Positions 2,828-56,944 of a DNA stretch of 63,174 nucleotides are shown here, piece after piece; position 1 is the first letter of the stretch, and each line of letters begins with the position of its first letter. A model generated the notes under the pieces. It was not told the origin of the DNA. It ran no database searches and saw only the letters and a program-made list of their open reading frames with translations. Source of the stretch: Verrucomicrobiota bacterium (GTDB lineage: Bacteria; Verrucomicrobiota; Verrucomicrobiia; Limisphaerales; UBA11358); NCBI GenBank assembly GCA_049523555.1, contig JBEKMU010000002.1:1-63174 (forward strand), read 5' to 3'. The position numbers and the translations under genes are program-made.

Positions 2828-3213
2828 GACCTATATACAACTGTTACTCCAAAATTACTGTGGGGAGGTCAAATCAGCCTTGTATGCGCAAATTGGTTTT
2901 GGCTACATGGCGGGATAAAATGGCTTCGTTTTGCGGAAAGGATGGAAATAGAGCCAAAGAAGATTTTAGCGTTGTGTTCACCAGATGTCGTTCTGCAAGA
3001 AGGATTTTAATGGTGGAGTGGAGATCAGGATCATCGTCTTCAAACCCATTTGAAACGGAGATGGCCGCCGAAATGAACCCAATTTTGTCGCCACTTTGTC
3101 GCCACATTTTTGGGCTTGCGGTAGGTTGTGATGGGTTGGGATAGGAACAGGGGTCTACCGACGAGATCGGTTGCAACCCCTTAATTCCAAGCTAACTATA
3201 TTGTGCTGAATTC

Positions 3214-3256
3214 GTTGCGGGGGCTGGATTTGAACCAGCGACCTTCAGGTTATGAG
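3214..3256 (-). repeat. Distal att site: partial copy of the tRNA-Met 3' half (anticodon loop to acceptor end)
   Basis: gttgcgggggCTggatttgaaccAGcgaccttcaggttatgag here versus gttgcgggggTAggatttgaaccTAcgaccttcaggttatgag at 56870-56912. The 4 differences are compensatory in the T-stem. Confidence 0.85.
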
Positions 3257-3385
3257 TGTGAAGGTCAGTCCCGCGTTGGCCATCTTCGCCATCTCAATTC
3301 GATAGTTTTCATACGATTTTAATTGGGTTTTCAAGTTCTTCGCCAAAACTTGGAACTTGATGAAACACCGTGAAACTTCTTGCAC

Positions 3386-28093: not shown

Positions 28094-28180
28094 TCTCACG
28101 CGGGAAAGTGTGAAGGGAAACTTGTTTCTTTGCAATATATTTTGACAGGCGGCAACCGCCTCGGTTGAGGACTCGTTTTT

Positions 28181-29017: not shown

Positions 29018-29302
29018 GTCACTAAATCAACTGCGTTGTCAGCGTGCCCGCCAATGTTGAACATTCGAGCGCGCCAGCGTTTCAACCAATCTTTCTTAAA
29101 GGCTTGCGATCAGAAAACCGCATATTTGTGTCAGCAGAACATCCGTCGAACCCTGCCCAAGATGGAGAATCGCAAATTTCCTGAATGACATGCCCCAATC
29201 AGCAAATCGCCACTTGGATCAGCCACAAGTTTATTCAATCTGAAGCATAGATGCGAATTTTTTTTGCAAAATTCCTCTGATGATTGCACAGAATTTCACC
29301 GC

Positions 29303-30394
29303 TCAAAATGGCCAGTTGATGCCGATGGTAAAATAAAATTGTCCGCCCAAATTCAGCCGTCCTTCCCGGCCAGCACCGCTGAAATTGGCATCGCTCATCG
29401 GCGAATATTGCACTCCCGCATAAATATCACCGTTTGCCACCGCGTGATACATCACCGTCGCGTTCACATACCCGCCATACACCATGTCGGTTGTCCCAAA
29501 CCGGCCTGTATTGTGAGCACCAACACCGTTGATAGTGATGGTTTCGTCGTATTTGTAATCGCCCGACACAATGCCGATGGCGGGGCCGGCTCCGACTGAC
29601 ATGCCGACATGCTCGGTCAAATCCCAATAAAATGATGGGCCTAATCGCACTGCGTAGAGCATCACGTCCAGCGAGCGAGTTCCAGTGACAGTTTGATTGT
29701 AAAGCGGCTGGCTCGTCACCGTTGGCGGTGTGTTGGGGATCATTGCTGAACTGCCGCTAGGGTTGCCGTAATAAGGCGCTCCCGGAATGACCACGTTTCC
29801 AACATTGAAGGTGTAGGTGGATTGATTGACGGTTGCCGAGATGGGATGGTTGTCGGTGATGCTGATGGGCAGCAGGTCAAAGCCCAGTTCCCACCCCACA
29901 CGGGCGTGCTTCCAATACCAAAGGTTGTCGCCATAGGCCATGTCGAATCCAGGGAACAGCCCGCCGTCTTCATTGGCGCTGCTGGATGCAGAAAACGACG
30001 TGGTGGCGTGCATGGTCAAGGTCTGGCCATTGTATTGCGAGGCGCTCTGATAGCCCCAATAAGTTGTGCCGCCGCCGACATCGCCAGTGCTGTCCACCCG
30101 CACGTAACCATCATCATAAATTCCGTTCGCGGGATTGTTGCCGGAAACGTTGAACTGCCCTTTCATGCTGAAGTTGGCGCTGATATTCATTCCAACCAAC
30201 GCGCCGATGCGGAAGTGGCGCGTCCAATCATCGGCATCCTGGGGGATTCGGATAAACGCGCTTGAATCCGGTTTTCCATAAACTTCTGGTTGCGCCGAGG
30301 CGAACGGTGCAAAGCCCGCTACACAAACCAGCCAAATCCACAAGGGCAGACAGGCGCGGCGGATTCTCGTAAGGTGATGCGTCAACATTTGCAT
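29303..30394 (-). CDS. Putative outer-membrane beta-barrel protein
   Basis: Signal peptide 'LWIWLVCVAGFAPFASA', alternating beta-strand pattern and C-terminal 'FTIGINWPF' ending in Phe. Confidence 0.5.
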   Translation of the reverse strand: MQMLTHHLTRIRRACLPLWIWLVCVAGFAPFASAQPEVYGKPDSSAFIRIPQDADDWTRHFRIGALVGMNISANFSMKGQFNVSGNNPANGIYDDGYVRVDSTGDVGGGTTYWGYQSASQYNGQTLTMHATTSFSASSSANEDGGLFPGFDMAYGDNLWYWKHARVGWELGFDLLPISITDNHPISATVNQSTYTFNVGNVVIPGAPYYGNPSGSSAMIPNTPPTVTSQPLYNQTVTGTRSLDVMLYAVRLGPSFYWDLTEHVGMSVGAGPAIGIVSGDYKYDETITINGVGAHNTGRFGTTDMVYGGYVNATVMYHAVANGDIYAGVQYSPMSDANFSGAGREGRLNLGGQFYFTIGINWPF

Positions 30395-30398
30395 GGCA

Positions 30399-31796
30399 TC
30401 ATGGATTTTGGAATACGCGATAAAAGCGCACGCTGGCATTTGTTGGCGCGCTTACTGTTGTGGGCGGGCCGTAATCAATCCATTGCGTCCGGTTGGCCGG
30501 AGCCACGATGGATGGCGGCGCAATCATGGCGTTGGAAAACAATACGTTGTCGCTGTAAACCACCGTGTAGGTTTGGTTGGTGGTGGTGGGCCATTCAATC
30601 AGCATATTGCCATTGGACAACTGGACGATGCGCGAAATGTTGATATTCGTGCTGATTGACGCCGCCCTCGGTGGAGTCCATGCGGGCAATGGCACAGCGA
30701 AAGCGTGCAACTGCGAATTGGTGAACGGGAAATAACCCCTGGGATAAAATTGCAGCAATAAGCTCACACTCTGTCCCGCCGCAAGCTGGGCACTGTAATA
30801 AACAAAGGGACTACCGTTATTCGTGCCGACAGCGTTGAACAACTGATTGGTTAAGCCCGTTACCACGATACGCGCGGCGGGAACGGATGACGGGCCGGCG
30901 TTTGACAACGTGATGGTTTGCTCCGTAAGCGCGTTTTGAAAATTGATGATTTGCGTGGAATTGGTCAAGGCGATGAGCGTGCCGGGGAGATAGGCGATGA
31001 CGGGAACGTTGGTGCTGGCAAAATTGTTGGCCGTGTTGGTGTCAAGCACGGCTGATCCTATGGAAGCGGAAAGAAGGAGTGTGGCAACATTGGTCGGCTG
31101 AATTGTGAATTGTAAATTCGTGTAACCTCCGCTGGCCAGCGTGCCCAAATTGAAAACCAAGTTGCTGCTGACGACGGTATAATTGGCCGGGATGGTGCCT
31201 CTCAATATCACGCCGGGCGGCAAGGTATTGGTTAGAACAACGCTGGTTGCGGCATTTGGTCCCAAATTGGTTGCCGTGACTCCGTAGGTCGTCCAATCGT
31301 TGGTGATAACCGCCTGAGCCGGGCCGGTAATCATCACGCCAAGATCAACCGTGGGTATCACCGCATTGGTGACCAGAACCACGGTGTTGGTGGAAGCGGT
31401 GCTGGCTGCGGTGCTGGAAGCAACCGTGACGGTGTTGGTGATAAATCCAGCCGCCGTAGGTTCGGCTGCAACGGCCAGGAGCACCGTTCCGCCGACGACG
31501 AATGGGCCGAGGTTGAATCGAACCGTGCTGCCACTGATTAAATTGGTTCCCTGACTGTTGGTCGCGTTCAAAATCTGGACTGATGGGGGCAGCGTGTTCG
31601 TCACCACCGCATCCTGCAAAAAGAAGCCTGTCGAATTGGTGACGTTGATGGTGAAAGTCAACGAATTGCTAACTTGGATGGAGGTTGCGGAACTGGTGAC
31701 AGAAAGACCAAAACCCTGCGCGTCAGCGCGCAACGAGGCGGCAGTCAAGCCCACTGCGAGCATCATCAGCGTTCGGAAATGAGAAAAAAGCTTCAT
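30399..31796 (-). CDS. DUF11 (conserved repeat domain) secreted protein
   Basis: Signal peptide from the internal Met 'MKLFSHF...'. Repeated 'VTNTLPPSVQIL' and 'VLTNTLPPGVIL' DUF11 hallmarks. C-terminal '...RFYRV' module. Confidence 0.65.
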   Translation of the reverse strand: MKLFSHFRTLMMLAVGLTAASLRADAQGFGLSVTSSATSIQVSNSLTFTINVTNSTGFFLQDAVVTNTLPPSVQILNATNSQGTNLISGSTVRFNLGPFVVGGTVLLAVAAEPTAAGFITNTVTVASSTAASTASTNTVVLVTNAVIPTVDLGVMITGPAQAVITNDWTTYGVTATNLGPNAATSVVLTNTLPPGVILRGTIPANYTVVSSNLVFNLGTLASGGYTNLQFTIQPTNVATLLLSASIGSAVLDTNTANNFASTNVPVIAYLPGTLIALTNSTQIINFQNALTEQTITLSNAGPSSVPAARIVVTGLTNQLFNAVGTNNGSPFVYYSAQLAAGQSVSLLLQFYPRGYFPFTNSQLHAFAVPLPAWTPPRAASISTNINISRIVQLSNGNMLIEWPTTTNQTYTVVYSDNVLFSNAMIAPPSIVAPANRTQWIDYGPPTTVSAPTNASVRFYRVFQNP

Positions 31797-31865
31797 GCTA
31801 CGAAGAATGCCATTCCGAGAATCATGTCGCAGTGAGTTTGCAGAAATTTCGCCGGAATGCAACCT

Positions 31866-32273
31866 TCAATGCTGCGCCGCTTCGGTCACGCTCACGTCTC
31901 TGGCGATGTTTGCCAGCTTGCCGCCTGCCAAAATCACACGGGAAAAGCTCACCTTCGCCGTTAGATTGGTTGACGTGAACGGCTGTGGGTTGGTGATGAC
32001 AAAGTTAAATGTCGTTCCGTTTTTTGGCCCCAAAGCGGGCTGGCTTTTCGCGCCGCCAACGACCCACTTGACTGACTGCCCGACCATTTTGCCTTGCTCG
32101 TCCAGCAAAAAGCAAAAGGCGCGGGCGGATTCAACTTTTTCAGCGAGATTGTTGGTTATGGCCAATGGAATAATGGCCTTCTGTCCGACGATTTTAGGCG
32201 GCGAAACGGTCACGGCCAATTGAGCCGATGTGGTGAAACCGCAAACCAACAAAAGGCAAAATAGGATTTTCAT
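31866..32273 (-). CDS. Small secreted protein
   Basis: 135 aa with signal peptide 'MKILFCLLLVCGFTTSAQ' and a beta-rich body. Confidence 0.5.
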   Translation of the reverse strand: MKILFCLLLVCGFTTSAQLAVTVSPPKIVGQKAIIPLAITNNLAEKVESARAFCFLLDEQGKMVGQSVKWVVGGAKSQPALGPKNGTTFNFVITNPQPFTSTNLTAKVSFSRVILAGGKLANIARDVSVTEAAQH

Positions 32274-32282: not shown

Positions 32283-32813
32283 CTAGAATTCAGGCTTAAA
32301 GTCTGGATTGCCCCAAACTCTTTTCACCTGTCCGGGTTTCAATTGCACTTGACTGGCATCGAACTTTTTTAGGTTTTCCAAAAAATTAGTGAAAGAATCT
32401 CCAATTTTGAAAAGATTTGAAAAAGTGGCAGGTTCGTCTTCTTCGGCTTCTAACTCATGATCCCAAAAAAAGATTTGGCCAAATGTTTTAGGTTGCAAAG
32501 AAAGGCAAACAATGTTCCCACATGAAGCATCACCAATTGGTAAAACATCTTTAGGAACACGGTCAGTGAGAGCAGTGCGCCGAGAAAGCAAATCTCCCCA
32601 TTTCGACTTTTCCAATAAGCCGTAAAAAAGGTCCACTCCCGCAGCATTCTGTTGATCAGGAATCGGAAATTCATTGCTTTCCGGCTTTCCGCCATTGAAA
32701 GTGAGCAAGAACATTTGATAATCGCCTGGGAGCTTTGCACCTATCACAGCTTCAAATTCCCGAATGACTGCTGAATCAACTACTTTATTTGGTTTTACAA
32801 TTTGAACTGCCAT
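32283..32813 (-). CDS. SMI1/KNR4 (SUKH-1) family immunity-type protein
   Basis: 'IREFEAVIGAKLPGDYQMFLLTFNGG', 'LPIGDASCGNIVCLSL' and 'GQIFFWDHE' match SMI1_KNR4. Start taken at the internal Met. Confidence 0.8.
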   Translation of the reverse strand: MAVQIVKPNKVVDSAVIREFEAVIGAKLPGDYQMFLLTFNGGKPESNEFPIPDQQNAAGVDLFYGLLEKSKWGDLLSRRTALTDRVPKDVLPIGDASCGNIVCLSLQPKTFGQIFFWDHELEAEEDEPATFSNLFKIGDSFTNFLENLKKFDASQVQLKPGQVKRVWGNPDFKPEF

Positions 32814-32826: not shown

Positions 32827-33195
32827 CTATTTTGATTTCTTGCTGAAACGAGCAATCCAGCCGTGTTTTCCGTAAAGTTCACCAGATAGCCCATCACTAA
32901 TATCTCGCAAATTATGCGCGGCACTTTCTCCGGGATTATCTATTATTAGTTGAAGGCTTCGCTCTTGCTCGGCTGTGAAAAGTAGATGGTGCAGAGTTGT
33001 ATCTACTATCAGCGGAATTAAGTTGCAAAGTGTATCCCGCTGTTCCGGGGTGAGCGAAACAATTTGTTGTTGAACCCGTTCGGCGGTTGCACCCTTCATT
33101 TCACCAGAAATAAAACGCTCCCAATCGCCAATTGCCTTGTCCCGAACTCTTTTCATCAGAAGTTCGCCAAATTTATCAAGTGATGGATTACTCAT
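32827..33195 (-). CDS. Candidate cognate immunity protein of the RHS C-terminal toxin
   Basis: 122-aa cytoplasmic helical ORF starting 21 nt after the RHS stop. No recognisable domain. Confidence 0.45.
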   Translation of the reverse strand: MSNPSLDKFGELLMKRVRDKAIGDWERFISGEMKGATAERVQQQIVSLTPEQRDTLCNLIPLIVDTTLHHLLFTAEQERSLQLIIDNPGESAAHNLRDISDGLSGELYGKHGWIARFSKKSK

Positions 33196-33216: not shown

Positions 33217-36200
33217 TTATCTTGGACTGTTCCAAGGAATTCGTGTTGGTTGGGTAACGCCCTGTGCGCGCAGGTTTTTTAACGATTGTGCAACCAACTG
33301 CCTGGCTTCTGCTTCGGTTGCGCCTCCAGCCATCAATGCTTGAACCGCAATTTGCGATTGTGCTTGAAGCGTATTTGCCCCGCCACTTGCAGCCAATTCG
33401 TCGAAAAGGGTGCGCTGCGCTGCCGTCATATCTTGATGGCTCCACCCCATACTTTCCATATATTCTTGGCTAATACTAAATCCTTCGTTGGGATTATAAT
33501 TGAGATCGCCTCGAAAAGCCGATTGAGCATGGACATGATGTCCACCAACATCACCATAAGTTCCCATCAAATCCGCGCCAGCTTTCTCAGTGGCTTCAAG
33601 TGCTCCTTTTGCCGTATCCTCGGTAAGTGATTTGGTAAACGGCTTGGCCACATCTTTCGCTAAAACTTTTACTGAATTTTCAACGAAAACCTTGCCGGGA
33701 ATAAAGTTGCCCACCATGTCCGCTGTGTTTGCTACCCAACTAACACCCGACACGGCCCAAGTCGTTATTCCCAAGCCACTGCCGAAATCGGGATGGGTGA
33801 ATTCATACCCAGCCTCCCGTCTGGCGCTGGTATTCAAAACGGTGTCGGACAAAGATTGACCTATGGCCGAAGCTTCTTGGTATGGGTCATACGCCAGGTC
33901 ATTCCAATGGACATTAATTTGTATATTGCCGTTGCCATCAATATACGGAGTCATCACTATCGGAAGTGTGCCTGCAAGATCCGCCGCAGCCGCGTCACCA
34001 TTCTGGTAATAATTCTGTGAAATGCGCCCGTCGGCGTCGAAACCGTTAATGGGGTCGCCGCCGCAGAATGTGAGATAATTTGGATCGCGCTCGTTCCAAG
34101 CCGAGTCATACGACAACCACATTCCAGCAAAGGGGTCATAAACTCTGGCGCCAATGTTGTAGTAGCCAGTGATGTCCGGCCAATGCCCGCGCCAAGCCGA
34201 GGATTGCGCCACGTCAACACCGTGACCCAACGCCACGGGCCGATAAGCCGGCACCGCGCCGTAACCCGTAGGCCGCGACGAATTCCAAGCCACGACGCCA
34301 TTGGTTACTTCCGCCAAAATGTTTCCGCGAAAGTCGCTGATGACGGGATTGAACAAACTCAAATAGGGCGACACGGCATCGAAGCCGCCCGTTCCATTCT
34401 CTCCACCATACTTGCCGTTTAGGTCGGGGCCGTAGAGTTTCCAGACGGTTTGATCGTTATAGGAAACGCCGAGTTCCAGAAATTCCACCTGCGGGTCGTA
34501 ATACTGGTTGATGGTCGTGGGCGTGACTCCAGCGGTTTGCACTTGGCCGTTGATCATTGGGTAGCATTGCGTGAACAGTCGCCGGTCCAATCCATCATAC
34601 TCCGCGTGCAAATAATAGCCGCTTTGGGTGCTATCAAAGTCAAACACGTCAGTCAGCCGGTCTTTGGCGTCCCAATACAATTGTTGCTGGTGATTGACCG
34701 TGCCGTCGGGTTTGCGCCAGATGCGTTGAGAAATATTTCCGCCTGAGTCGCGCCCGACGGTGGCGGTCTGTTGTGCGAAATTGTTCGTGAACGAATTGGT
34801 CGCCCATGCGGTGAAGAAGCCGCTTGGATGCAATGCCGCAACTTTCAATTGATGCGCGCCGGGCGTCAGTTCCATCAGTGTGCGCCATTGGAAAGGATTG
34901 GAAGGATCGCCGGAACTGTTCGTGGTCACAGCCAACGGCTGGCCGTCCAGCAAGGCTGTCAACGTGGACAGTCCATTCACCCGCCCGTAGGCCGGGTAAC
35001 TAATGCACGTATTGGTCTCGGTGTTGACGCGCGAGAACGGGCTTACGCCGCCGTTCCAATCTGCCGAAGTGGAGTTGGGCGCTCCCATTTGCGTGAGCAC
35101 GCCCGGCCCGGCGGCAACGCCGCTGTCATAAGCGAACGAGTTCGTCCAAGCGGCAGTGCCGTTGAGATTGAGTTGTTCCTGCGCCAACCTGCGGCTCATG
35201 CTTGTGTAGGAGTAAATGTGCGAGTCAGTGAAGTCAGAACGATTAAGCGTGTGGGAATACAGTAATCCGTCGCCAGACCATCCCAGGGATTCAGTCAATT
35301 GTGGCACGCCGCTGACATCGGTAACGATGGAAAAGGGACGGCCTTCGCCGTCCCGTGAAGTGATGGTGGTGGTCTTTGTGCCGACTGCGCGGCTGGTCAG
35401 CAATCCGGCGGTGTCAAAACTGTAACTGCCGCTGCCGGTCGGGTCGCTGGCGTAGATAAGCGCGCCATCCGCGCGCGACGCGAAATTGTAGCTGGCCCCG
35501 TTGATGCCCAACCCGGTGCGCCGTCCGGCGGGGTCCCAGGTCTGGCTGGCACCGGAGAAAGTTGTGCCGTTCCATGTGACGGTTTCGGAACTCAACTGTC
35601 CGTAAGCATCAAAGGTGCGTGACACGACTTTGGGGTCCGCTCCAACATCGTTGCCAGTGTTCTGTTCGGTGATGTTGGTCACGAACCCGCGCGGATCGTA
35701 ATTCCAGAACGTGTCAACATGTGTATAATTAAAATCAGTGCGCGAAATGGAAGCCTGATGCAGACGGTCATCGTAACTATACGTGCTGACCAAACCCCGC
35801 CCATCGGTTTTGGTGTCGAGCAATCCGGCGAACGAATTTCCGCCGGGATAATAGGTGTAGGTGTTCGTGCGCGTGCTGACGCCGCCGGCACCGACGAGGC
35901 AATCTTGCAGAACTTGGCCGGCATTGTTGTAAATGGCCGTCCATTGCAAACCACCCGGCATGGTGCGGTTAGTCATGTCGCCCATCGGATTATACGCAAA
36001 AGTGGTAAGCGCGTTGTCGCGGTCAATTTTGCCAATGAGTCGGTTCAATCCATCGTAACTAAAACTCGTGGCCGTCCAAGTTGTGACTGCGCCACTGGCC
36101 GAAGAATCGTGCTGCGCGGAAGCAAGATTTCCCGCAAGGTCATACTGATTCAAGGTGAACTCCGCCGCATTCGCCGACGGGTAGGCAATGGATAGGACTG

Positions 36201-39200
36201 TATGCCCGTCGTTGTCGGTATAGGTCGTGTTGACGATGGCGGACGCACCCGAACCATCAGTAGTAGTGACGCTGTTATGGTCGGGCGAGTAAGCCATGTA
36301 TTTTTCGCGCACAAGCGCCCCGGAAGGGCTGTAAATTTGGGAGCCGGTAACGCGCCCCAAAGCATCCATTGTTGTAACGGTGCTTTCGCCGAGTGCATTG
36401 ACGTTCGTCAGCGAGCGTCCGGCGGCATCATAGAAATTGGCAACAGCCTGCTGGAGAATATTGGTGACATAGGTGATGTTCGTGCCAGGGACTCCAATTC
36501 CGCCGCCGCCGCTTTCCGAAACCGTGACAATCGTCGGGCCTGCTGTAACTTTGACGCGGTCAAGTCCGTCATAAGCGGCGGTAAAAACATTGCCTCCTTC
36601 ATCCGCTTGTTGAACCGCATTGCCACGAAGATCAAGTTGAATGGAATTGGTAACTTCCGGCACACCTGCGGCGGAATAAAATATCCGGGTAGCAATAAGG
36701 TTGACATCATCATAGGTCGTCTGCCAGTAAGCTCCGTTGCCCTGAATTTCTTTGTTTATACGTCCATCAAAGTAGTAACGCCAGGCGTTGGTCGAGCCGT
36801 CAGGATTGCTGCGATACTCTGGCTTGCCGGTGTCGGTATAAAGTGTGACCGCCACTCCACCGAGCGCATTGGTATGCGTCTGGACTAATCCACCCGGTTC
36901 ATAACTGAACCCTTCCGCGCTCAAGACGGTGACGCCATCCACGTCGAGATGTTTGGTCTGCACCAGCCGACACAAGGCATCCCAGGTGTTGGTTGTCATC
37001 GCGCCACGCGGATCAACAGCCAGCGTCAGGTTTCCGAGTGGGTCATATTGGTAAAAACTTTGGGCGTATTGGTTGTAACCAGCGGGCGCTTCAACTCCGC
37101 TGCCGTCGCTCTTGGCCTCGGAACGCCAGTGAATTTCCGTCGAGCGGCGTCCCATGCCATCGTAATCAAGGAACACATAATCTTCGGGGTTGTAACGCGG
37201 GCCATCCACCCAAGTCAGTTCGCCGTTGTCGTTGTAATAATTGAAGCTCCACGACAGCGCATTGCCGAACTCGTCGAAGTCCTCCTGTGCGGTTGGCCGA
37301 TTGAGCGCATCGTAATCAAAGAACTTGACCGCACCCAAAGCGTCCACCTGATTCACCATTTGCCCGCGCTCGTTGTAGAAGAAAGTATTGACGACATTCG
37401 GGTCGCCGGTGCCGGTATAGCGGATGGATTGGGTGATGAACCCATGTCCATCATACGTCAAATCATTGGTGGCGGCGTCGGCTGAACCATAGGCGCGAAT
37501 CAAGCGCGTCAGGACACCAAATGCCCGATTCGTCTGCGTGGTGTTGCCGTTCACCACAACATTCGTCGCATTGCCGTAGAACATGAAGCTGGTGCTGATC
37601 GGCGTTGCTCCGGCATAGCGAATAACTTGTTGCGGCATGAAGGTAAACGTTGGGTCATAAACAGTCACGACACTGTTGCCAACAGGGTCGGTTATTTGAA
37701 CCGGCAAACAGTTCGTGTTGTAAATGGCCGTGTTCGTGGCTGTCTGTGAGGCAATACCATCGCCGGTGAGGTCGCCGGTCACAATAGTATTGGTGACGTT
37801 GCCGTTTGAATCATATTGATACTGGCTGACAAGGCCGCGCTTGTCCGTGCGCTGTCGCACACTGCGCGGGTAGTAGCCGGCGGCACTTGTGTTGGTGGTG
37901 AACCAGACCTGCTGAATCATTTGTCCGAGCGGGTCGGTGATTTTGGTGATTAGATTGTTGGTATATTCGTAACGGTTGGTGTGATTGTTCCCGTCAATGA
38001 CAAGCGTGTAGCCGGTGATAGTGTTAGTCCAAGAATTGGTGATGTTAAAATTATTCGCATAAACAAATGCCGCCGTGAGAATGGGATTCAAATCCAGACC
38101 GGCGGTGGACAACTGGTTGGTGACACGCCGCTGGCTATCATAGGCGTTGATCAGTTCGCGTCCGTCCGGTTTATCTTCCTCAACGATAAGATGCGTGGAG
38201 TAAGTCGCCGTGCCGCCGGTGACGGCCTGCGTGCCGTGCAGATACTGGTAGGAGCGTGTGGAGTTGTCCGGCAGTGTAACACTGACCAAATCGCCATAGT
38301 CATCATAGTAATAATACATCCAACGACCGTCGCCGGTGTAAGCGTCAATGATGTGGCCGTAAACGTCGTAATCGAAACCAAGAAAGTTTCCATTGCTGCA
38401 CTGGATGCGCTGCATCTGGCCGAAATTGGCATCCGCCGAATTTGTGTCGTAGGCAAACGTGTAGTAATTGCCACGGCAATCAGTCCATTGGAGCAGATAA
38501 GGTCTGGCATTGGTAACTGCGCCGCTGTTGAATTTCATGAATTGGAAGACACGGACGCTGCCGTCAGCGCCATAGAGAGTATAGTTGGTGACAGAGCCGT
38601 TGACGGAGCGCAGGATGTAATCACGCAACCGATTGGCCAAGCCGCCCACGCCCGCGACGGTGTTGTTGTTCAATTGCGGGTTGGCGGCAAGCGTGGGAAA
38701 CCACATATTGGTGCTGGCGCTGTTGGTGCTATGCACATAAGCCAGCACTGCTCCGTCCATGTCCGCCGCATAGATGTTGGTGCTGTTTTTGCTGAGGCTC
38801 AAGTAGGGCATGATGTTGAGCATCCAGCCGCGGCCGAACTGGTTGTCAGCCACATTCTGGCTGGAATAATTGCGGCGCAAGGCCAGCGGTATCGGGCCGG
38901 GCAACTGCAAGTCGGTTTCGCTCACATAAAATTCGCCGGTGATGTTGTTCACCGGGTCGGAGACCTGCGCGCCCGACTGCGACGGGTCGTTGGGAGTTCT
39001 CAAGTTACCGTTCTGCTCGCTGGCCAGAATGTCCGAGGACAAGGCCGAGGACGAAGTGCCCGCCGTGGTTCCAAGCTGCTGCGAAACGCTGGTCGCCCAA
39101 GCGGTGGTAAATGGATCAACCACAAACGTGCTGGTCTGGCTGGCTACGGACGGCGCATCATAACTGGCGATTTCGTCGGGCACCGTGGCCGTCTGGCTGG

Positions 39201-42200
39201 CCGGCTGGTTTAACGCGGCTGAATAATCATTGTTATTGTCGCTCACATTGTAGTTGGGGGTGTTGGCGGCTGCCACGGTGTTGGCCGGCAAATTCTGGCC
39301 GGCAAATCCTCCGTTCATGCTGTTGGGAGAAATCAGCGCCCCATAGTAATAAGGATCCAAAATCAATGCTCCCATTCCTTTATAGACGGAATTAGTTATC
39401 GGCCCCGGTGTCATAAAGACGGTCACATAACCGTAGGTTGAGGAGTTTTTCAAATTGCTTGTAAGCTGCTGCCAAATGCTTGAATCCCAACTCTGCAACT
39501 GCTTCCCTTGATAATTCGTCGTGCCCTGAGCAACGTAGTTATAGATGTTTAACGGCACGATTCCCAACCCCCTGCTTTGTGCTAATTGCAACAGCCGGAC
39601 GGTGGAAACAGCGTTGGTCTGCTGATAGAAACGGTTGATGGCCTGGTGTTCCTCGGCAGAGCCGTCCACAATTTTAAGCAAATTGTAATTCCATTCTGAC
39701 ATTGTGTAGTTCTGCCCCGAATCCGGGTGCAGCGTGTCATTGCCCGCCGCCATCGTTTCGTAGAAAAACATATCCACACAAGGCAGGATGGGGTCGGTGC
39801 CATTGCTCAAATTGCCATTGCTGTCCCGCGCCGGTATTATTTTTGACAAGCCAGCCGCAAAATACGAAAGCTGGGCAAATTTTTGCCATTGCTGGTTTAA
39901 CTGGCTGAACTCGCTGTCTTTTTCGTAATACGACATCCCGGCCAGATACATCAATGCCCCTTCATAGACATCGGGCGACATGCTGCCGGCCTGCGAAGGA
40001 TTGGCATTCAACTGACTTTGCATCTGCCATAAATCCGCCGCGTGGACGTTGAGCATGTCGCGCGTCACCTGCCCGTAATTCAGGCAAATGGCCGCCTGGT
40101 CGCCGACCCGGAGCGGTCGTTCAATGTCAATCTCGTTATAGCCGCTGAGACTTAGAAACGTCAGCGTCGGGTCAATGGCATACGACGGTGTGATGGCGCG
40201 ATGGCGGTGATACTTGAAGCGCACCCCCAATGAGTAGTCATTCGCGTCGAAATTCAAAGTAAGCACTTCCTTCGACAACAGGTTGGTGTCATTGCTGAAC
40301 GCAAATTGACTGGTGATGTTGGTGCGGAAAGGCATCAGGATGAGATTTAACTGCACGTTGCCGCCGACAACGGACTGGTTGATATAAAATTCGCGGTTGT
40401 GCAAATCCACCAGCCGCATGTCTCCAGTCTTGATGTCCTTGGTCGGGTCGGTCTGGCTGTAAACTTCGACGCTCATCGTGTCGAAAACGTTGGTCAACGC
40501 CGGATTGATGTTGGTGAGCGTGCTGGAAGAAAGATTTTCAACCGGCGTGCTGACATTGGTCACCCAGGTCGGAGTCGGAAAATCCTGCCAGCGCGCGCAG
40601 TAATGCTGACGATTGATTATTTTGACGCCGATGTCGTCCACAGAGACACCCGGATGATTTTGCAAAAGGGTCTGCTGCAAATATCTTGGGAAAATAACGC
40701 GCGGGGTGTTGTCACCATCCACTGCCAGCGACATGAGGTTCGTGTTGCTGTAAATATAATCATGCACCCATTCGTAGGCGTTGCTGTAATTGGTGGGCAT
40801 TTCATCGAACAAATTCAGCCCTTCATTGATTTGATAATCCTTCAGCCACGGGAAAATATGCACCCAATTGGTGCCGATGTAGGCGGCAACCCACGGATAG
40901 TTCACCGCAATCATTGTATTGGTGGTGTAAAGCTGCCCGGCTTCATTGATGTCACCATGCACTTGGAATTTGAGCATCTGGCTTAACCGGGCATCCAAAA
41001 TTTGCATTCCGTTGTGCGGAGCAAATTCATACACGGCGGGCACGCCCGCTTGCCGCAGCAAATAAACCAGCAGCGCGCATTGCTCGATGGGCGAACCCTG
41101 TTTTTCCAAAAATGTTCCCAATGCGCCGCGTGTTACTCCCGGCGGGTTGATGGAATTTTCAGCGACGTTTCCATTGTCGTTGACATCAATCGGATCGGTA
41201 AGGCCGACTTGATTGATGACGTAATTGGCCAGCGCAATCGGGTCATTGCCCATGCTGGCCACAAAGTTGTCCAAAATCGGATGCCGCCGCAGTTCGGGGC
41301 TGTTGTCCAGGTTGGTTGCGGACGATGGCGTGAAACTCACGACATTAGTGACTGGCGGCGTGTTGGTCAGCATTTCCGACAGGGTTTTGCCTGCGTAAAA
41401 CGGCGGCAAGGGACTGCCGTTAAAATGAGGCTGGTCGAGAAATGTCGAACGCCACGGCGGTCGCTGCTCAAACTCCAACGAGTAGAGCAGGGAGTTTGTC
41501 ATCTGTCCGCTGCCGTTCACCACCATCGGATTGCTTATGTCGGCGGGATTTCCGGCGATGCCAACGATGTAGTAGTAATTGGTGGCCTGACTGCTCGCGG
41601 TGTGCGTCAACACATACGCGCCCCTTGAATTCTCACCCCAATTCAAATTTGGAATGCCCGCTAGAATGGTTGTCAATCCGTAGGCATTGGTTGTGAGTTG
41701 AAAACCGTTCGTCATGTAGGTTTGCCACAAGTTGGTGTTGGACACTGCGGGCGGGTAAATACTAACTGAGCCAGCCAGTTGATAATTGGTGCAGTAATAT
41801 GCCTGAACCACGACCGGCTGATTGGACAAAATCGGGTCGCCCGCATAGATGCCAAAACTGTAAGGCTGGCTGAAATACAACGGCGTTCCACCGACCCGTT
41901 CGCCAAAGGCGACAATGGGATTGTTGAACGCGATCCCGTTGGCGGTGTTTGTTGCGTTGTAGTGGTAGAGTGTCTGGCTGCTCCAGGATGAAAGTCCAGG
42001 ATACAAGGCCGAGCAGTTGCCGTTCAAATTGCTATACACGGTTCCCGTTTCGTATTCCAAAGGGATCACTTGCGACCAGTAGGTCGGGTCGCTGCCGCTG
42101 CCTCGCCAATACATGTCTGCCGGCGATACGACCGAATTGGTGGTTGAACCATTCGGCAGAAGGGTCACGGTGGCATTGGTCGTGAGTCCCGGAAAATACG

Positions 42201-43290
42201 CGCTGCTGCTGTTCAGCGACAAGACAACGGTCTTGGCGGCTGATAAACTGGCATTGATAACCGAAACATTCAGATTGGTGCTGGTTTGATTCGCTGCGAA
42301 TGTGACTGACGTGGGCAAGGCCGTGTAATCGCTGCCCGCCGTCGCCGTGCCGCCGACAATCAGATTTGCCGTGAGTGCATTGCTCAATCCGCTGCTGCGG
42401 GTGATTGTGAATTCTCCGACGTAGTAGTTATTTGGCGAAGCGTATTGAGCCGGAGCGGTGACGCTGAGTATCGGCACATCTTGCAAGACATTAATGGTTA
42501 CGGTGTTATTGGTGCTGATTTGGTAGGTTCCTTGAGCATCAAGCGCGAGCGTCAGCGTCAGTATTTTTGTGCCAACCATATTCGCGTTTGCCACTGCCGT
42601 AATTGGAATATCCACATAACTGCTGCCCGCATTGATGGTGGCGCTCCCACTCAATGAACCCGTGTAGTCACTGCCGTTAACCGCATTGCCGCCCAACGAA
42701 TAATAAACCGTTTGCGTTTGAAGTGAATCTCCACGAACAATGCGGATCGTCGCGCTGTTGGGGCTTTCCCCCCTGACTATATCTGCGCTGTTGTAATAGT
42801 TCGTGCCGGAAACGATAACAGCATTATAGAGCGAATAGTTGTTGATAATGGTAACTGTGCAAGTGGCGTTGCCAACTATCTGCCGGGCCGTTCCCCAAAA
42901 ACCCAATACAATGGTGCGGCTCGGAAAGTTGGTGGTGATTAACAATGGAATTGGAATATACAAGGTTGTGTTATCCAAATTACCGAGTTGCGCGAACCCG
43001 TTGCGCTCGCCGCCATTTGCCACCCACGTTGTATTGGTATAGTCATCTATAAAAATTCTAGCGGTTGAAGGTCCCGGTGAAAAATTTGAATTCGTGCTGT
43101 GCGCGAAGATGCTCGCGCCGGCGCCAAGGGTGCCGCCGCTGCCAACCACTGGCACATTAATCGTTCCGTCGGTTGGATGCACGGTCATGGAACTGGAACC
43201 AAAACTCACATTTCCGACACTTTGTGCGTTGGAAAACACTGTTGCGGAAAGGAACAGAAGCAGCGAGATATGCAGCGATTTCATAGTCAT
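33217..43290 (-). CDS. Giant polymorphic toxin: signal peptide, Calx-beta repeats, transglutaminase-like domain, RHS/YD-repeat shell, variable C-terminal toxin
   Basis: 3357 aa. Calx-beta-like 'GGNAVNGSDYTGSL' and 'GGTATAGSDYTALP'. TGase-like 'EQCALLVYLLRQAGVPA'. RHS entry 'DPVNNITGEFYVSETDLQLPG', many YD repeats, and core end 'GARVYDPFAGMWLSYD...GGDPINGFDADG'. Confidence 0.9.
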   Translation of the reverse strand: MTMKSLHISLLLFLSATVFSNAQSVGNVSFGSSSMTVHPTDGTINVPVVGSGGTLGAGASIFAHSTNSNFSPGPSTARIFIDDYTNTTWVANGGERNGFAQLGNLDNTTLYIPIPLLITTNFPSRTIVLGFWGTARQIVGNATCTVTIINNYSLYNAVIVSGTNYYNSADIVRGESPNSATIRIVRGDSLQTQTVYYSLGGNAVNGSDYTGSLSGSATINAGSSYVDIPITAVANANMVGTKILTLTLALDAQGTYQISTNNTVTINVLQDVPILSVTAPAQYASPNNYYVGEFTITRSSGLSNALTANLIVGGTATAGSDYTALPTSVTFAANQTSTNLNVSVINASLSAAKTVVLSLNSSSAYFPGLTTNATVTLLPNGSTTNSVVSPADMYWRGSGSDPTYWSQVIPLEYETGTVYSNLNGNCSALYPGLSSWSSQTLYHYNATNTANGIAFNNPIVAFGERVGGTPLYFSQPYSFGIYAGDPILSNQPVVVQAYYCTNYQLAGSVSIYPPAVSNTNLWQTYMTNGFQLTTNAYGLTTILAGIPNLNWGENSRGAYVLTHTASSQATNYYYIVGIAGNPADISNPMVVNGSGQMTNSLLYSLEFEQRPPWRSTFLDQPHFNGSPLPPFYAGKTLSEMLTNTPPVTNVVSFTPSSATNLDNSPELRRHPILDNFVASMGNDPIALANYVINQVGLTDPIDVNDNGNVAENSINPPGVTRGALGTFLEKQGSPIEQCALLVYLLRQAGVPAVYEFAPHNGMQILDARLSQMLKFQVHGDINEAGQLYTTNTMIAVNYPWVAAYIGTNWVHIFPWLKDYQINEGLNLFDEMPTNYSNAYEWVHDYIYSNTNLMSLAVDGDNTPRVIFPRYLQQTLLQNHPGVSVDDIGVKIINRQHYCARWQDFPTPTWVTNVSTPVENLSSSTLTNINPALTNVFDTMSVEVYSQTDPTKDIKTGDMRLVDLHNREFYINQSVVGGNVQLNLILMPFRTNITSQFAFSNDTNLLSKEVLTLNFDANDYSLGVRFKYHRHRAITPSYAIDPTLTFLSLSGYNEIDIERPLRVGDQAAICLNYGQVTRDMLNVHAADLWQMQSQLNANPSQAGSMSPDVYEGALMYLAGMSYYEKDSEFSQLNQQWQKFAQLSYFAAGLSKIIPARDSNGNLSNGTDPILPCVDMFFYETMAAGNDTLHPDSGQNYTMSEWNYNLLKIVDGSAEEHQAINRFYQQTNAVSTVRLLQLAQSRGLGIVPLNIYNYVAQGTTNYQGKQLQSWDSSIWQQLTSNLKNSSTYGYVTVFMTPGPITNSVYKGMGALILDPYYYGALISPNSMNGGFAGQNLPANTVAAANTPNYNVSDNNNDYSAALNQPASQTATVPDEIASYDAPSVASQTSTFVVDPFTTAWATSVSQQLGTTAGTSSSALSSDILASEQNGNLRTPNDPSQSGAQVSDPVNNITGEFYVSETDLQLPGPIPLALRRNYSSQNVADNQFGRGWMLNIMPYLSLSKNSTNIYAADMDGAVLAYVHSTNSASTNMWFPTLAANPQLNNNTVAGVGGLANRLRDYILRSVNGSVTNYTLYGADGSVRVFQFMKFNSGAVTNARPYLLQWTDCRGNYYTFAYDTNSADANFGQMQRIQCSNGNFLGFDYDVYGHIIDAYTGDGRWMYYYYDDYGDLVSVTLPDNSTRSYQYLHGTQAVTGGTATYSTHLIVEEDKPDGRELINAYDSQRRVTNQLSTAGLDLNPILTAAFVYANNFNITNSWTNTITGYTLVIDGNNHTNRYEYTNNLITKITDPLGQMIQQVWFTTNTSAAGYYPRSVRQRTDKRGLVSQYQYDSNGNVTNTIVTGDLTGDGIASQTATNTAIYNTNCLPVQITDPVGNSVVTVYDPTFTFMPQQVIRYAGATPISTSFMFYGNATNVVVNGNTTQTNRAFGVLTRLIRAYGSADAATNDLTYDGHGFITQSIRYTGTGDPNVVNTFFYNERGQMVNQVDALGAVKFFDYDALNRPTAQEDFDEFGNALSWSFNYYNDNGELTWVDGPRYNPEDYVFLDYDGMGRRSTEIHWRSEAKSDGSGVEAPAGYNQYAQSFYQYDPLGNLTLAVDPRGAMTTNTWDALCRLVQTKHLDVDGVTVLSAEGFSYEPGGLVQTHTNALGGVAVTLYTDTGKPEYRSNPDGSTNAWRYYFDGRINKEIQGNGAYWQTTYDDVNLIATRIFYSAAGVPEVTNSIQLDLRGNAVQQADEGGNVFTAAYDGLDRVKVTAGPTIVTVSESGGGGIGVPGTNITYVTNILQQAVANFYDAAGRSLTNVNALGESTVTTMDALGRVTGSQIYSPSGALVREKYMAYSPDHNSVTTTDGSGASAIVNTTYTDNDGHTVLSIAYPSANAAEFTLNQYDLAGNLASAQHDSSASGAVTTWTATSFSYDGLNRLIGKIDRDNALTTFAYNPMGDMTNRTMPGGLQWTAIYNNAGQVLQDCLVGAGGVSTRTNTYTYYPGGNSFAGLLDTKTDGRGLVSTYSYDDRLHQASISRTDFNYTHVDTFWNYDPRGFVTNITEQNTGNDVGADPKVVSRTFDAYGQLSSETVTWNGTTFSGASQTWDPAGRRTGLGINGASYNFASRADGALIYASDPTGSGSYSFDTAGLLTSRAVGTKTTTITSRDGEGRPFSIVTDVSGVPQLTESLGWSGDGLLYSHTLNRSDFTDSHIYSYTSMSRRLAQEQLNLNGTAAWTNSFAYDSGVAAGPGVLTQMGAPNSTSADWNGGVSPFSRVNTETNTCISYPAYGRVNGLSTLTALLDGQPLAVTTNSSGDPSNPFQWRTLMELTPGAHQLKVAALHPSGFFTAWATNSFTNNFAQQTATVGRDSGGNISQRIWRKPDGTVNHQQQLYWDAKDRLTDVFDFDSTQSGYYLHAEYDGLDRRLFTQCYPMINGQVQTAGVTPTTINQYYDPQVEFLELGVSYNDQTVWKLYGPDLNGKYGGENGTGGFDAVSPYLSLFNPVISDFRGNILAEVTNGVVAWNSSRPTGYGAVPAYRPVALGHGVDVAQSSAWRGHWPDITGYYNIGARVYDPFAGMWLSYDSAWNERDPNYLTFCGGDPINGFDADGRISQNYYQNGDAAAADLAGTLPIVMTPYIDGNGNIQINVHWNDLAYDPYQEASAIGQSLSDTVLNTSARREAGYEFTHPDFGSGLGITTWAVSGVSWVANTADMVGNFIPGKVFVENSVKVLAKDVAKPFTKSLTEDTAKGALEATEKAGADLMGTYGDVGGHHVHAQSAFRGDLNYNPNEGFSISQEYMESMGWSHQDMTAAQRTLFDELAASGGANTLQAQSQIAVQALMAGGATEAEARQLVAQSLKNLRAQGVTQPTRIPWNSPR

Positions 43291-46783: not shown

Positions 46784-48238
46784 CTAAAACCGCTTCCACC
46801 ACGAAAACCATTTTGAGATTTTTTCGTCTGGTTCAAGTGGTGGCAGCGTTATCCGTCGAAATCCTTTTTCGCAATGCACCAGCACACATTCATGGTCGCG
46901 GAGCGCGCGGAGTTGATACGGCTTGATTTTGTGCTCCTCGGTTTCGGAATAATTCACATTGCGCTTTCCGGCACTCGAACCCCATGAGCGTTTGAACACA
47001 CGTTTTTTGCCGAGAAAATCGGCAGCTTGAACCGCGTCGGCTTCATCGGCGGAACGGAAAATCATCCGGTTGCGAAGATTCAACGTCAGCACTTTGGATT
47101 TGTCGTTTCCCAAAGGCGGGATGAGCGATGTGGTGGACTGCGCGGCGGCGACGATGGTGGCGCCCGCCTCGCGGATCACGTCCACGCAATTGTAATCGCT
47201 CGTGCCGTCCTCGCTGGCCGTCATAAACCGCTGTGCCTCGTCCGCCCACAGGATGAGCAGATTGTTTTTGCCACGCTGATTTTTGGCCTGGTCAAACCGG
47301 CGCAGCGCATGATGGTAAAAAAGCAGTTTCAAAAAGGTGTTCACATACCGCCGCTCGGTCTGGAATTTCTGCGGCATGGTGACGAGGATGATTTTGCCGG
47401 TGTCAATTGCCGAAAAATCGAAGGTGCTGTTTTCGACGCAAAAGATTTCCGCCACTTCGGGCGTCAGGAAGTATTGCAGATAATTCCCGATGGTTTCCCG
47501 GACGCCGCCAAGCTGTTCCGCCGGCTGGTCGAGGAAACGGTGTTTGAAATGGAAATTCAGGGCGTAACGGCGTGGCGTCTGCAAGGGAAGTTTGTTCAAA
47601 AATTCCAATTCCTCGTCCAACTTCGGTTTGCTGGAAAGCAAATCCAGCGCGCCGGATAACGTCACGGGCCGTTGCAATTCGGCGAGCAATTCCAAAGCAT
47701 AAGCGATGTGCGTTTGCGCCTGATTTTTGAAAAAACCTTTGTCCCCGCCCTGGCCAAGACTGGTGGCCGTGTCCACCACAAATTTCGCATACGTCGTGAA
47801 TGGGATGCTGCGGTCGCCGGTGAGATTGAACCGATGCAATGATTGTTCGTTTTGGCCGTCGGCCTGAATTTGCAAATGAATTAAATCGGTTTCGCGTTGA
47901 TAGTGCCGCGCCATCGCCGAAAGCGTTTCCCAATAGACGCCTTTTTCATCAATGCACAGGCCGCCCCATTTGTCCTCGTTTTGAAACACCTGGTGCGCCA
48001 GTTGGTTGATGCCGGAAGTGGTCTTGCCGGAGCCGGTATCGCCGGTGATGAGCCAGCCGCGGCAGAATTGATTTCGTCTCCAAGTCAGGCCGCCAAGTTG
48101 GGCGACATGGCGTTTGCCTAGCAAAACCCTCGCGGTGATGATGAGCAACAAAAGGGCATATCCAAGCGCGAAGCCGCGCAGTGATTTGGACAAGGCTGGA
48201 AGATGAACCGGGTGGAACGGGATGAAATCAAGTTTCAT
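46784..48238 (-). CDS. virD4: Type IV coupling protein (VirD4/TraD/TraG family)
   Basis: N-terminal TM helix, Walker A 'ITGDTGSGKTTSG' and Walker B-like 'LLILWADEAQRF'. Confidence 0.8.
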   Translation of the reverse strand: MKLDFIPFHPVHLPALSKSLRGFALGYALLLLIITARVLLGKRHVAQLGGLTWRRNQFCRGWLITGDTGSGKTTSGINQLAHQVFQNEDKWGGLCIDEKGVYWETLSAMARHYQRETDLIHLQIQADGQNEQSLHRFNLTGDRSIPFTTYAKFVVDTATSLGQGGDKGFFKNQAQTHIAYALELLAELQRPVTLSGALDLLSSKPKLDEELEFLNKLPLQTPRRYALNFHFKHRFLDQPAEQLGGVRETIGNYLQYFLTPEVAEIFCVENSTFDFSAIDTGKIILVTMPQKFQTERRYVNTFLKLLFYHHALRRFDQAKNQRGKNNLLILWADEAQRFMTASEDGTSDYNCVDVIREAGATIVAAAQSTTSLIPPLGNDKSKVLTLNLRNRMIFRSADEADAVQAADFLGKKRVFKRSWGSSAGKRNVNYSETEEHKIKPYQLRALRDHECVLVHCEKGFRRITLPPLEPDEKISKWFSWWKRF

Positions 48239-50478: not shown

Positions 50479-50505
50479 CACTTTGTTCATTTTATGAACA
50501 AAGTG
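50479..50505. promoter_or_regulatory. 27-bp palindromic operator candidate (copy 2), 29 bp upstream of the relaxase start
   Basis: CACTTTGTTCAT-ttt-ATGAACAAAGTG. The extended ~40-bp block is shared with 20702-20744. Confidence 0.6.

Positions 50506-56867: not shown

Positions 56868-56944
<77 letters not shown>

Follow-up and report, generated by a model that had tools for sequence, protein, structure and literature searches.

What is a 3357-residue Rhs protein with a secretion signal doing among conjugation genes, and how would it reach another cell? The question is raised by one gene in a 63,174-nt stretch of DNA from a Verrucomicrobiota bacterium (GenBank assembly GCA_049523555.1, contig JBEKMU010000002.1; lineage Limisphaerales, UBA11358), which at its full length we call the window. 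An initial annotation of the same DNA had described the protein as a toxin of unusual architecture, in which a Sec signal peptide, Calx-beta domains, a transglutaminase-like domain and an uncharacterised region of about 650 amino acids (aa) stand in front of an RHS shell, and had suggested a competition or addiction module that is spread by conjugation and works independently of a type VI secretion system (T6SS). Our reading, which we consider likely to be correct, is that the product of the locus is a polymorphic Rhs toxin that depends on Sec and belongs to the inactive-transglutaminase class, carried together with its immunity genes as the cargo of an integrative and conjugative element (ICE) and serving as a T6SS-independent competition module.

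WapA of Bacillus subtilis and the wall-associated Rhs proteins of Gram-positive bacteria are Sec-dependent and T6SS-independent, end in polymorphic C-terminal nuclease toxins, are encoded next to adjoining immunity genes and act in contact-dependent competition. The premise from which the initial annotation started, that Rhs toxins are T6SS- or Tc-associated, overlooked this known Sec-dependent class. Like WapA, the window toxin is an Rhs protein with a Sec signal peptide that works without a T6SS. The producers of WapA-type proteins are monoderm, however, and anchor the toxin in the cell wall by wall-binding repeats, whereas the window toxin comes from a diderm, carries Calx-beta domains and a transglutaminase-like module, and must cross an outer membrane. 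A study in comparative genomics predicted its class in 2012, as RHS polymorphic toxins that are Sec-dependent and carry an inactive transglutaminase at the N-terminus (Zhang, de Souza, Anantharaman, Iyer & Aravind 2012, Biol Direct 7:18; PMC3482391), and we assign the window toxin to it by the described architecture. In that description, the transglutaminase domain misses at least one residue of the catalytic triad, stands directly after a signal peptide or a transmembrane helix and is followed by the RHS array, with bacterial immunoglobulin (Ig) domains as occasional neighbours. Table 1 of the paper lists the class under type II secretion system (T2SS)/Sec-dependent export, and its Ntox10 row reads 'Bacteroidetes, verrucomicrobia … RHS … Transglutaminase'; an anchoring hypothesis is put forward for these toxins. 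The window toxin shares with them the signal peptide, the triad-deficient transglutaminase, the RHS array, the variable C-terminal toxin and the downstream immunity gene. It differs in that the paper saw the transglutaminase core only, whereas in the window toxin the core belongs to a conserved module of about 930 aa with five domains, and in having two small secreted companions, an ICE location and a tip that is not clearly within the paper's families. Another paper that mentions an 'inactive transglutaminase' together with Rhs (PMC12096838) concerns two unrelated Shewanella genes and is irrelevant here.

The toxin gene is one uninterrupted open reading frame (ORF) of 3357 codons, according to both the ORF list and the translation. 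Because contigs from a peat-metagenome run, assembled independently, span the whole operon at 99% identity or more, with one substitution and zero indels, the giant ORF is no assembly chimera or artefact. Two of the related loci, both from assemblies of one ENA series, have a toxin gene that is broken into two parts in or beside the Ser/Thr-rich linker (L003, 10001-20370, 1310+2145 aa; L004, 10001-20354, 1437+2001 aa); the breaks are probably frameshift errors but may be real two-gene variants. Short contigs from a wetland metatranscriptome are 95-99% identical to parts of the toxin gene (window 34792-41806). These hint that close relatives of the gene may be transcribed in situ, with carry-over of DNA as the alternative source of the contigs.

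When read from the sequence, the N-terminus, MTMKSLHISLLLFLSATVFSNA ahead of QS, is a Sec signal peptide with its n-, h- and c-regions in place, as had been claimed, and by a crude test a hydrophobic N-terminal stretch is present in 106 of the 124 family members with an intact N-terminus. Pfam places Calx-beta in two stretches of the head that follows (about aa 165-270 and 283-376, E = 2.5e-11), in agreement with the earlier count of at least two such modules. The Cys motif EQCALLVYLLRQAGVPA is found at aa 736, NYPWVAAY at aa 797 and DPVNNITGEFY at aa 1445; the last of these coincides with the start of Pfam DUF6531 and is the RHS entry that it had been taken for. Zero Pfam families match aa 1-160, 390-640, 820-1445 and 3085-3357, and NCBIfam returns nothing for the head and the C-terminal region. 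Searched against the sequences of the PDB, the full-length toxin, the profiles of the module and of the toxin end, and the small companion orf135 (see below) give nothing usable except a weak match of the toxin to 7Q97, which is confined to residues of the shell.

Does the sequence leave room for the usual delivery systems of Rhs toxins? Among the approximately 50 ORFs scanned within the window, none has T6SS, PAAR, VgrG or Tc domains, which is what the initial annotation had stated for the genes of the window. Nine related loci have gene calls, and their flanks, covered for up to 10 kb, also hold no T6SS, T2SS, PAAR, VgrG or Tc genes. The toxin protein itself has no PAAR, prePAAR, DUF4150, VgrG or Hcp-type domain, and Pfam and NCBIfam searches with the whole protein and its segments find no SpvB, TcdB mid-N/mid-C or beta-propeller domain and no TcA partner. 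Homology of the N-terminal half to TcB/SpvB-type modules, a possibility raised earlier, was looked for with Pfam and with a fold search (Foldseek); the former gives no such match and the latter returns transglutaminases, so we reject a TcB/SpvB-type N-terminus. With a Sec signal peptide conserved in the family and no PAAR, VgrG or Tc module, the proposal of a T6SS-independent design stands.

The part of the protein from aa 1445 onward has the layout expected of a polymorphic toxin. The shell is matched by Pfam DUF6531 (E = 8.5e-17) and RHS_repeat (E = 6.6e-18) and, at aa 3027-3088, by TIGR03696 (Rhs_assc_core), with the motif DPINGFDADG at aa 3079; it is 52-82% identical in all related loci that reach into it. 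Two relatives (L013 and L011) part from the window toxin at the Rhs core, at aa ~3090, and two others (L006 and L005) remain collinear with it to aa ~3230 and then continue with a different tip. The C-terminal region is therefore bipartite and consists of a pre-toxin segment, for which Pfam and NCBIfam give zero family matches, and a swappable tip. Among the related loci, the tip of the window is common only to L010 and L021; relatives bear other tips and immunity families (Tox-PL-2, PT-TG, Imm33-like, Imm26, SocA). The same tip domain also ends Rhs and HINT-domain proteins of unrelated bacteria, including Citrobacter farmeri and Snodgrassella. It is a compact domain of about 115 aa with the invariant pattern G-Y-V-G-H-H-x-H…F…Y…S-I…H…M…Q-R…F…L…S-G…N, and in the window toxin the leading histidines are His3251, His3252 and His3254. 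The window's own tip has zero Pfam matches, and one of ten aligned tip members matches Tox-GHH2 (PF15635) below threshold (E = 0.0034). GGHH is invariant, whereas the HxxxH motif of Tox-GHH2 is absent and the pattern is HHxH…H instead. The most likely activity would be that of an HNH/EndoVII-type nuclease, an assignment we make tentatively from the motif.

Downstream of the tip, a 122-aa ORF begins 21 nt past the toxin stop, and its motif DISDGLSGELY is also found in the protein P0161, in a tail fused behind the same tip. By position and motif, its product is the candidate for the cognate immunity protein, and because this candidate is cytoplasmic, the toxin would have a cytoplasmic target. 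The SUKH-1 gene next to it is probably an orphan second immunity gene; SUKH homologues also come after the toxin in L005 and L012. NCBIfam gives nothing for the immunity proteins, and PADLOC reports no defence-system match besides a weak SUKH-type one. The GC content declines along the cassette: the shell has 0.55, the C-terminal region 0.49, the 122-aa ORF 0.44 and the SUKH gene 0.41. A conserved shell, a recombined tip and adjoining immunity genes, as they appear in these sequence comparisons, make the locus a polymorphic toxin of the Rhs class, and the swappable tip with its neighbouring immunity genes is the anatomy of a competition module that had been proposed.

We turn to the location of the gene. 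From its gene content, a tRNA-Met ICE of about 53.7 kb is recognised in this peat-bog Limisphaerales-type Verrucomicrobium, and the toxin gene is assigned to its cargo because it sits with transfer genes between the tRNA and integrase at one end and the attachment (att) repeat at the other. The initial annotation had placed the gene on a conjugative element, and the tRNA-Met, the integrase, the att repeat, the relaxase, the coupling protein and the genes of a type IV secretion system that we find (Table 1) confirm this placement. The interior of the ICE also holds a DUF932 gene and a methyltransferase-helicase fusion. The next question is whether homologous ICEs carry the same cargo, a check that had been called for, and the cassette is indeed present in at least four related elements. 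Three of them (L002, L006 and L013) have a TrwC-ParA-coupling protein backbone and a gene for a REC-only response regulator upstream of the cassette; in the fourth (L017), the response-regulator gene and the coupling protein gene are upstream of the cassette, and the locus reaches only to the latter. Fragments of the backbone occur in L011, L023 and L024. By this comparison the toxin is a recurrent cargo of one ICE lineage in Limisphaerales-type metagenome-assembled genomes from bog, palsa and soil. The claim of spread by conjugation applies to one clade, which is ICE-borne, whereas distant members of the module family are chromosomal: P0306 adjoins serS, and P0286 (from the cultured Rubellicoccus peritrichatus) and P0258 have giant adhesin-like genes as neighbours.

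Two small genes accompany the toxin. The stop codon of the upstream partner ends 15 nt before the toxin ATG, and a ribosome-binding site (AGGAG) lies ahead of the partner's own ATG. A homologue at 41-68% identity is found directly 5' of the toxin in 23 of the 27 loci; the partner was not detected beside the distant members L022, L026 and L027. We considered and rejected the idea that the partner is a detached head domain of the toxin, since none of the 169 giant proteins of the family resembles it significantly. The second companion, orf135, lies 3' of the variable immunity genes in 17 of the 27 loci, including those of the distant L022 and L027 and, weakly, L026. Neither companion has a match in Pfam, NCBIfam or PADLOC, and orf135 has none in the PDB either.

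We now consider the N-terminal region and its family. A word-indexed search with aa 1-1445 as the query finds only about 22 relatives that share more than Calx-beta, all of them metagenomic, the few that are named being Verrucomicrobiae. An exhaustive profile search with the trimmed region gives 517 representative clusters at E<=1e-3 and 283 at E<1e-30, and the clusters that carry the module are mostly proteins of 2,900-4,000 aa. In this profile, the transglutaminase motif and the "unknown 650 aa" are parts of a single conserved module, aa 385-1320. In the region that had been called uncharacterised, aa 820-1440 have zero sequence matches in Pfam, NCBIfam and the PDB. With this module in 517 clusters and the class already described (PMC3482391), the architecture is not an unusual one. 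The layout recurs in 169 sequences as a signal peptide, a head that may be missing or reach ~2,500 aa, the ~930-aa module, a linker of ~130 aa and the DUF6531/Rhs shell. The module starts no more than 60 residues from the N-terminus in 40 of the 124 members with an intact N-terminus, and the rest carry a longer head first. The heads vary among relatives and may be Calx-beta, MAM-like, choice-of-anchor Q or none. At NCBI relatives are named 'transglutaminase domain-containing protein', and the named members of the module family are all from Verrucomicrobiota; a homolog search with the module of the distant member P0309 returns three unnamed matches. Some Limisphaerales-type toxin loci, at 58-65% identity, come with bin labels from outside the Verrucomicrobiota, namely L010, L012, L017 and L024 (Bifidobacteriaceae) and L018 (Sulfotelmatobacter); these bins are probably mislabelled or contaminated. 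One cultured carrier with a complete genome is Rubellicoccus peritrichatus (CP136920).

The structure of the module was modelled with AlphaFold2 (AF2) from a diverse alignment of 53 sequences. The model has a mean predicted local distance difference test (pLDDT) score of 88 and a predicted TM-score (pTM) of 0.88, and it divides into five domains, namely a beta domain (aa 385-629), an alpha/beta transglutaminase-like core (aa 634-884) in which the first turns of one helix (model residues 350-363) hold Cys738, a further beta domain (aa 889-1074), a domain of long helices and beta hairpins (aa 1077-1239) and a small alpha/beta domain (aa 1244-1320). A model of aa 385-1445 made from 10 close sequences was discarded (pLDDT 35); in the shallow-alignment model, the linker (aa 1321-1444) has very low confidence. 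New here, relative to what was known of the class, are this five-domain module, the two small secreted companions conserved around the toxin, and the recurrence of the cargo in at least four Limisphaerales ICEs.

Does the core of the module have the fold of a transglutaminase, as had been claimed? The Pfam Transglut_core match is below threshold, with 16.6 bits where the model requires 23 (E = 0.0095). In the Foldseek search of the module model against the PDB, however, the top 47 matches are animal transglutaminases, with E = 6e-6 to 3e-3 for TG2, TG3 and factor XIII over ~400-860 alignment columns (best ~740), and after the animal enzymes comes 3ISR, a bacterial transglutaminase-like cysteine protease, at a probability of 1.0. 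The global TM-scores of these matches are low (0.10-0.15), with a sequence identity of about 10%. On the model, the transglutaminase fold of the core is thus confirmed, and because of the low global scores we limit the claim to the fold and take the domain order shared with the animal enzymes as merely suggestive. The likeness to TG2, TG3, factor XIII A and 3ISR extends through ~740 columns, over the beta-sandwich, the core and the beta domains in the same order. The differences are a Tyr and a Phe at the positions of the catalytic His and Asp and an extra region of ~240 aa, helical and alpha/beta, that comes after.

Of the canonical Cys-His-Asp triad, only the Cys is present in the toxin. We compared these positions across 143 family members, in which the core is the best-conserved portion of the module. 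Arg721, Pro799, Pro814 and Trp815 are 100% conserved and Cys738 is 94% conserved. The canonical His position is occupied by Tyr798, which is a Tyr in 97% of the members and never a His, in line with the earlier remark that the His of the usual 'HAW' appears replaced, and the canonical Asp position is occupied by Phe813 (Phe in 96%). Near these canonical positions, His811 and Asp818 are conserved at 85% and 94%, respectively, and the complete C-Y-H-F-D pattern is found in 105 of the 143. In 8 members a Ser, Ala or Asp takes the place of Cys738, in about 22 a Gln, Asn, Tyr, Ala or another residue that of His811, and since the substitutions at the two sites are independent of each other, an obligate Cys738-His811 dyad is unlikely.

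Table 1. Positions in the window of the toxin gene, its parts, its companions and the landmarks of the element
Feature	Position	Strand	Basis
Whole toxin gene, 3357 aa	33217..43290	-	ORF list, translation, independent contigs
Sec-type signal peptide, aa 1-22 (ends …VFSNA, before QS)	43225..43290	-	read from sequence
Variable head, aa 23-384: unassigned beta domain, then two Calx-beta	42139..43224	-	Pfam
Conserved ~930-aa module, five domains, aa 385-1320	39331..42138	-	profile search, AF2
Transglutaminase-like core, aa 634-884	40639..41391	-	sub-threshold Pfam, Foldseek, family conservation
Ser/Thr/Asn/Ala-rich low-complexity linker, aa 1321-1444, GC 0.60	38959..39330	-	outside module profile
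DUF6531 plug, Rhs/YD-repeat shell and Rhs core, aa 1445-3088, end DPINGFDADG	34027..38958	-	Pfam, NCBIfam
Pre-toxin segment, aa 3089-3230, Gly-rich hydrophobic stretch	33601..34026	-	common to L006 and L005
Swappable toxin tip, aa 3231-3357, GxYxDVGGHHVHA…RIPWN	33217..33600	-	recurrence in unrelated bacteria
Cognate immunity candidate, 122 aa, without signal peptide	32827..33195	-	position, motif
SUKH-1 (SMI1/KNR4) immunity gene	32283..32813	-	Pfam SMI1_KNR4, E = 4.4e-20
orf135 companion, 135 aa: signal peptide and beta-rich ~115-aa domain	31866..32273	-	locus comparison
Upstream partner, 158 aa	43306..43782	-	N-terminal signal/anchor segment, Ig-like beta domain, TSP3-like tail
Distal att repeat, copy of tRNA-Met 3' half	3209..3261	.	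53-nt direct repeat, 87% identical to 56865-56917
TrbI/VirB10-like	10668-11717	-	Pfam TrbI
VirB4/TraG-like ATPase	16502-19225	-	Pfam P-loop_TraG
Type IV coupling protein (T4CP), TrwB/TraD-type	46784-48238	-	Pfam TrwB_AAD_bind
ParA	48567-49268	-	Pfam CbiA/ParA
TrwC relaxase-helicase	50534-53344	+	Pfam TrwC, E = 8.8e-83
Tyrosine integrase gene, adjoins tRNA-Met	55360-56751		Pfam Phage_integrase
tRNA-Met integration target	56868..56944	-	ARAGORN; att repeat 56865-56917

How might these parts work together? The signal peptide, which is seen in the sequence, would take the toxin through Sec to the periplasm, and a T2SS or another route would then bring it to the cell surface or the medium; this second step is the weakest of the scheme. 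Following the proposal in PMC3482391, the Calx-beta head and the ~930-aa module may hold the toxin on the surface of the producer, bind the target, or both. The DUF6531 plug and the Rhs shell would enclose the C-terminal region, and, by analogy with Rhs/TcC proteins, the aspartyl autoprotease of the Rhs core would cut at DPINGFDADG. The pre-toxin segment (aa 3089-3230) probably aids entry into the target, in the cytoplasm of which the ~120-aa GGHHxH tip would act as a putative HNH/EndoVII-type nuclease. The 122-aa cytoplasmic immunity protein would shield the producer and its kin, and SUKH would provide extra immunity against another toxin. Transconjugants would gain the weapon and the antidote together, and cells that lose the ICE would turn sensitive to neighbours that keep it.

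Several points weigh against this reading. The T6SS negative reaches as far as the window and the flanks of nine loci, and no T2SS or other secretion gene is linked to the toxin. The nuclease assignment draws on a motif and one sub-threshold Pfam match, with HxxxH absent, and the PDB sequence searches with the toxin profile gave nothing. The ICE bears an IS66 insertion, and its transfer is predicted from the genes; in the literature we found no experimental work on any member of the family. Finally, with Cys738 conserved and the likewise conserved His811 and Asp818 nearby, the module may not be catalytically dead. One alternative starts from these residues and takes the module for an active enzyme with a non-canonical site of Cys738, His811 and Asp818, which frees or processes the toxin or cross-links it covalently to a protein of the surface or the target. 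Their conservation, the C-Y-H-F-D pattern in most members and the position of the core as the best-conserved part of the module all speak for such an enzyme, as does the location of His811, which in a Pfam-guided register is on the same strand as the canonical Asp position and two residues before it. We nevertheless regard it as rather unlikely, given that the canonical His and Asp are absent in every member examined, that the Cys and His811 are lost in an uncoupled way, and that the residues that are fully invariant (Pro799, Pro814, Trp815 and Arg721) are structural. A wider proposal, which we call unlikely, is that the module and both companions form a dedicated T6SS-independent display and delivery pathway for Rhs cocoons across the diderm envelopes of Verrucomicrobiota, in which the relocated Cys738-His811-Asp818 site would serve processing or covalent attachment to the target.

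The remaining alternatives concern the target and the route. A giant secreted Rhs cocoon without a T6SS, with an adhesin-looking head and module, could be a self-contained Tc- or teneurin-like device whose targets are eukaryotes (soil protists, fungi or invertebrates, for instance) instead of bacteria; peat soil has grazing pressure, and the distant members have giant adhesin-like neighbours. However, small cytoplasmic immunity genes, SUKH included, come directly after the toxin, and because the tip and the immunity genes adjoin and are swapped jointly, the toxin should be able to hit the producer's own kind. The TcA, TcB, SpvB and mid-N/mid-C domains are all lacking, and the same tip is found on enterobacterial Rhs proteins, so that a eukaryotic target is in our view improbable. 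The toxin could also be an effector of a T6SS or of another contact-injection system with its adaptor encoded elsewhere, the apparent signal peptide being a transmembrane or prePAAR-like segment. Some T6SS Rhs effectors do carry N-terminal hydrophobic helices, and the small conserved upstream partner can be imagined as a chaperone. Yet the N-terminus has the classic layout of a signal peptide with an A-Q cleavage site, as do most family members and orf135, and the partner has a signal/anchor segment of its own. No PAAR, DUF4150, VgrG or Hcp is found in the protein, the window or the flanks (up to 10 kb) of the nine loci, and the 1,440 aa of extracellular-type domains (Calx-beta, transglutaminase-like) are unlike any T6SS loading domain; we give this alternative almost no credence. 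A Sec-dependent toxin of the inactive-transglutaminase class, used between bacteria, remains the reading that we prefer.

It is useful to set this reading against the known systems with a similar shell. The PAAR-Rhs effectors of the T6SS (Photorhabdus Rhs1, PDB accession code 7Q97; Pseudomonas protegens RhsA) share with the window toxin the DUF6531-type plug, the YD-repeat cocoon, the autoprotease motif, the encapsulated toxin and the immunity gene. The window toxin differs from them in lacking PAAR and prePAAR domains, a link to VgrG and an Eag chaperone, and in possessing a Sec signal peptide and an extracellular-type N-terminus of 1,440 aa. The TcB-TcC cocoons of the Tc toxins and the teneurins likewise have a YD-repeat shell round a C-terminal domain, are extracellular and do without a T6SS; in contrast to them, the window toxin lacks SpvB, TcdB mid-N/mid-C, a beta-propeller and a TcA partner, and it has immunity genes, which speak for bacteria as targets. 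As for the carriage, the T6SS ICEs GA1 and GA2 of Bacteroidales (PMC8102008) and the ICE-borne contact-dependent inhibition system of Proteus mirabilis (PMC11278526) are also conjugative elements that spread a contact-dependent toxin-immunity weapon. Those elements carry a whole secretion machine (T6SS or type V secretion system), whereas here the weapon is a single Sec-dependent Rhs operon.

The ICE has other features that deserve mention. A perfect palindrome with 10-nt arms (CACTTTGTTC-N7-GAACAAAGTG) occurs within a 41-nt repeat at window 20712-20738 and 50479-50505, just 5' of a ClpB-D2-like AAA+ gene and of the TrwC relaxase gene, respectively, with a chance expectation of 0 matches. The same site is found in L013 (1029-1055), beside the relaxase gene of the related ICE, and from its placement it is probably an operator of the ICE or a site associated with the origin of transfer (oriT). 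At the left end of the ICE (3783-8939, minus strand) lies the gene of a 1718-aa fusion of an S-adenosylmethionine (SAM)-methyltransferase and an SNF2/ResIII-type helicase, which could have an anti-restriction or DNA-modification function for the element. Within the cargo region, the IS66-family transposase gene (25674-27203, plus strand) has the DUF932 gene on one side and the PEP-CTERM genes on the other. After orf135, with very short gaps, come the gene of a DUF11-repeat surface protein and a 378-aa ORF (27461-31862, minus strand); the two are in the same order in L006 (19765-22282) at 59-63% identity, and PEP-CTERM and MORN-repeat proteins come next. The DUF11-repeat gene, the 378-aa ORF and the PEP-CTERM/MORN genes may be further surface-protein cargo of the ICE. 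Outside the element, an exact 21-nt duplicate of the tRNA-Met 5' end (57044-57064), at a distance of 116 nt from the gene's own copy, may be what a previous integration left behind, and just beyond the ICE a gene with internal DNA repeats spaced by 117 nt encodes a 1557-aa protein of RCC1 repeats and Ig domains (57828-62501, minus strand). In the related locus L001, an 1811-aa Cas12/C2c1 RuvC-like ORF (1-3929) is located about 6 kb from the toxin gene of P0003, amid small helix-turn-helix genes.

What does the locus mean for the biology of these toxins? With the class predicted since 2012, the discovery is incremental, and what interest remains lies with the module, for its size and its structure, and with the companions, the carriage on an ICE and the delivery without a T6SS. 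The export of Rhs cocoons and their entry into the target, when neither a T6SS nor a TcA injector is at hand, is a standing question, above all in bacteria with two membranes. The locus and its family of at least 517 clusters give concrete material for it, namely a modelled five-domain module, two companions and a cultured representative, Rubellicoccus peritrichatus. The ~115-aa tip and its candidate immunity partner are an uncatalogued pair, shared with the Rhs and HINT-domain polymorphic toxins of other bacteria, and one clade of these weapons appears to ride conjugative elements in peat soils.

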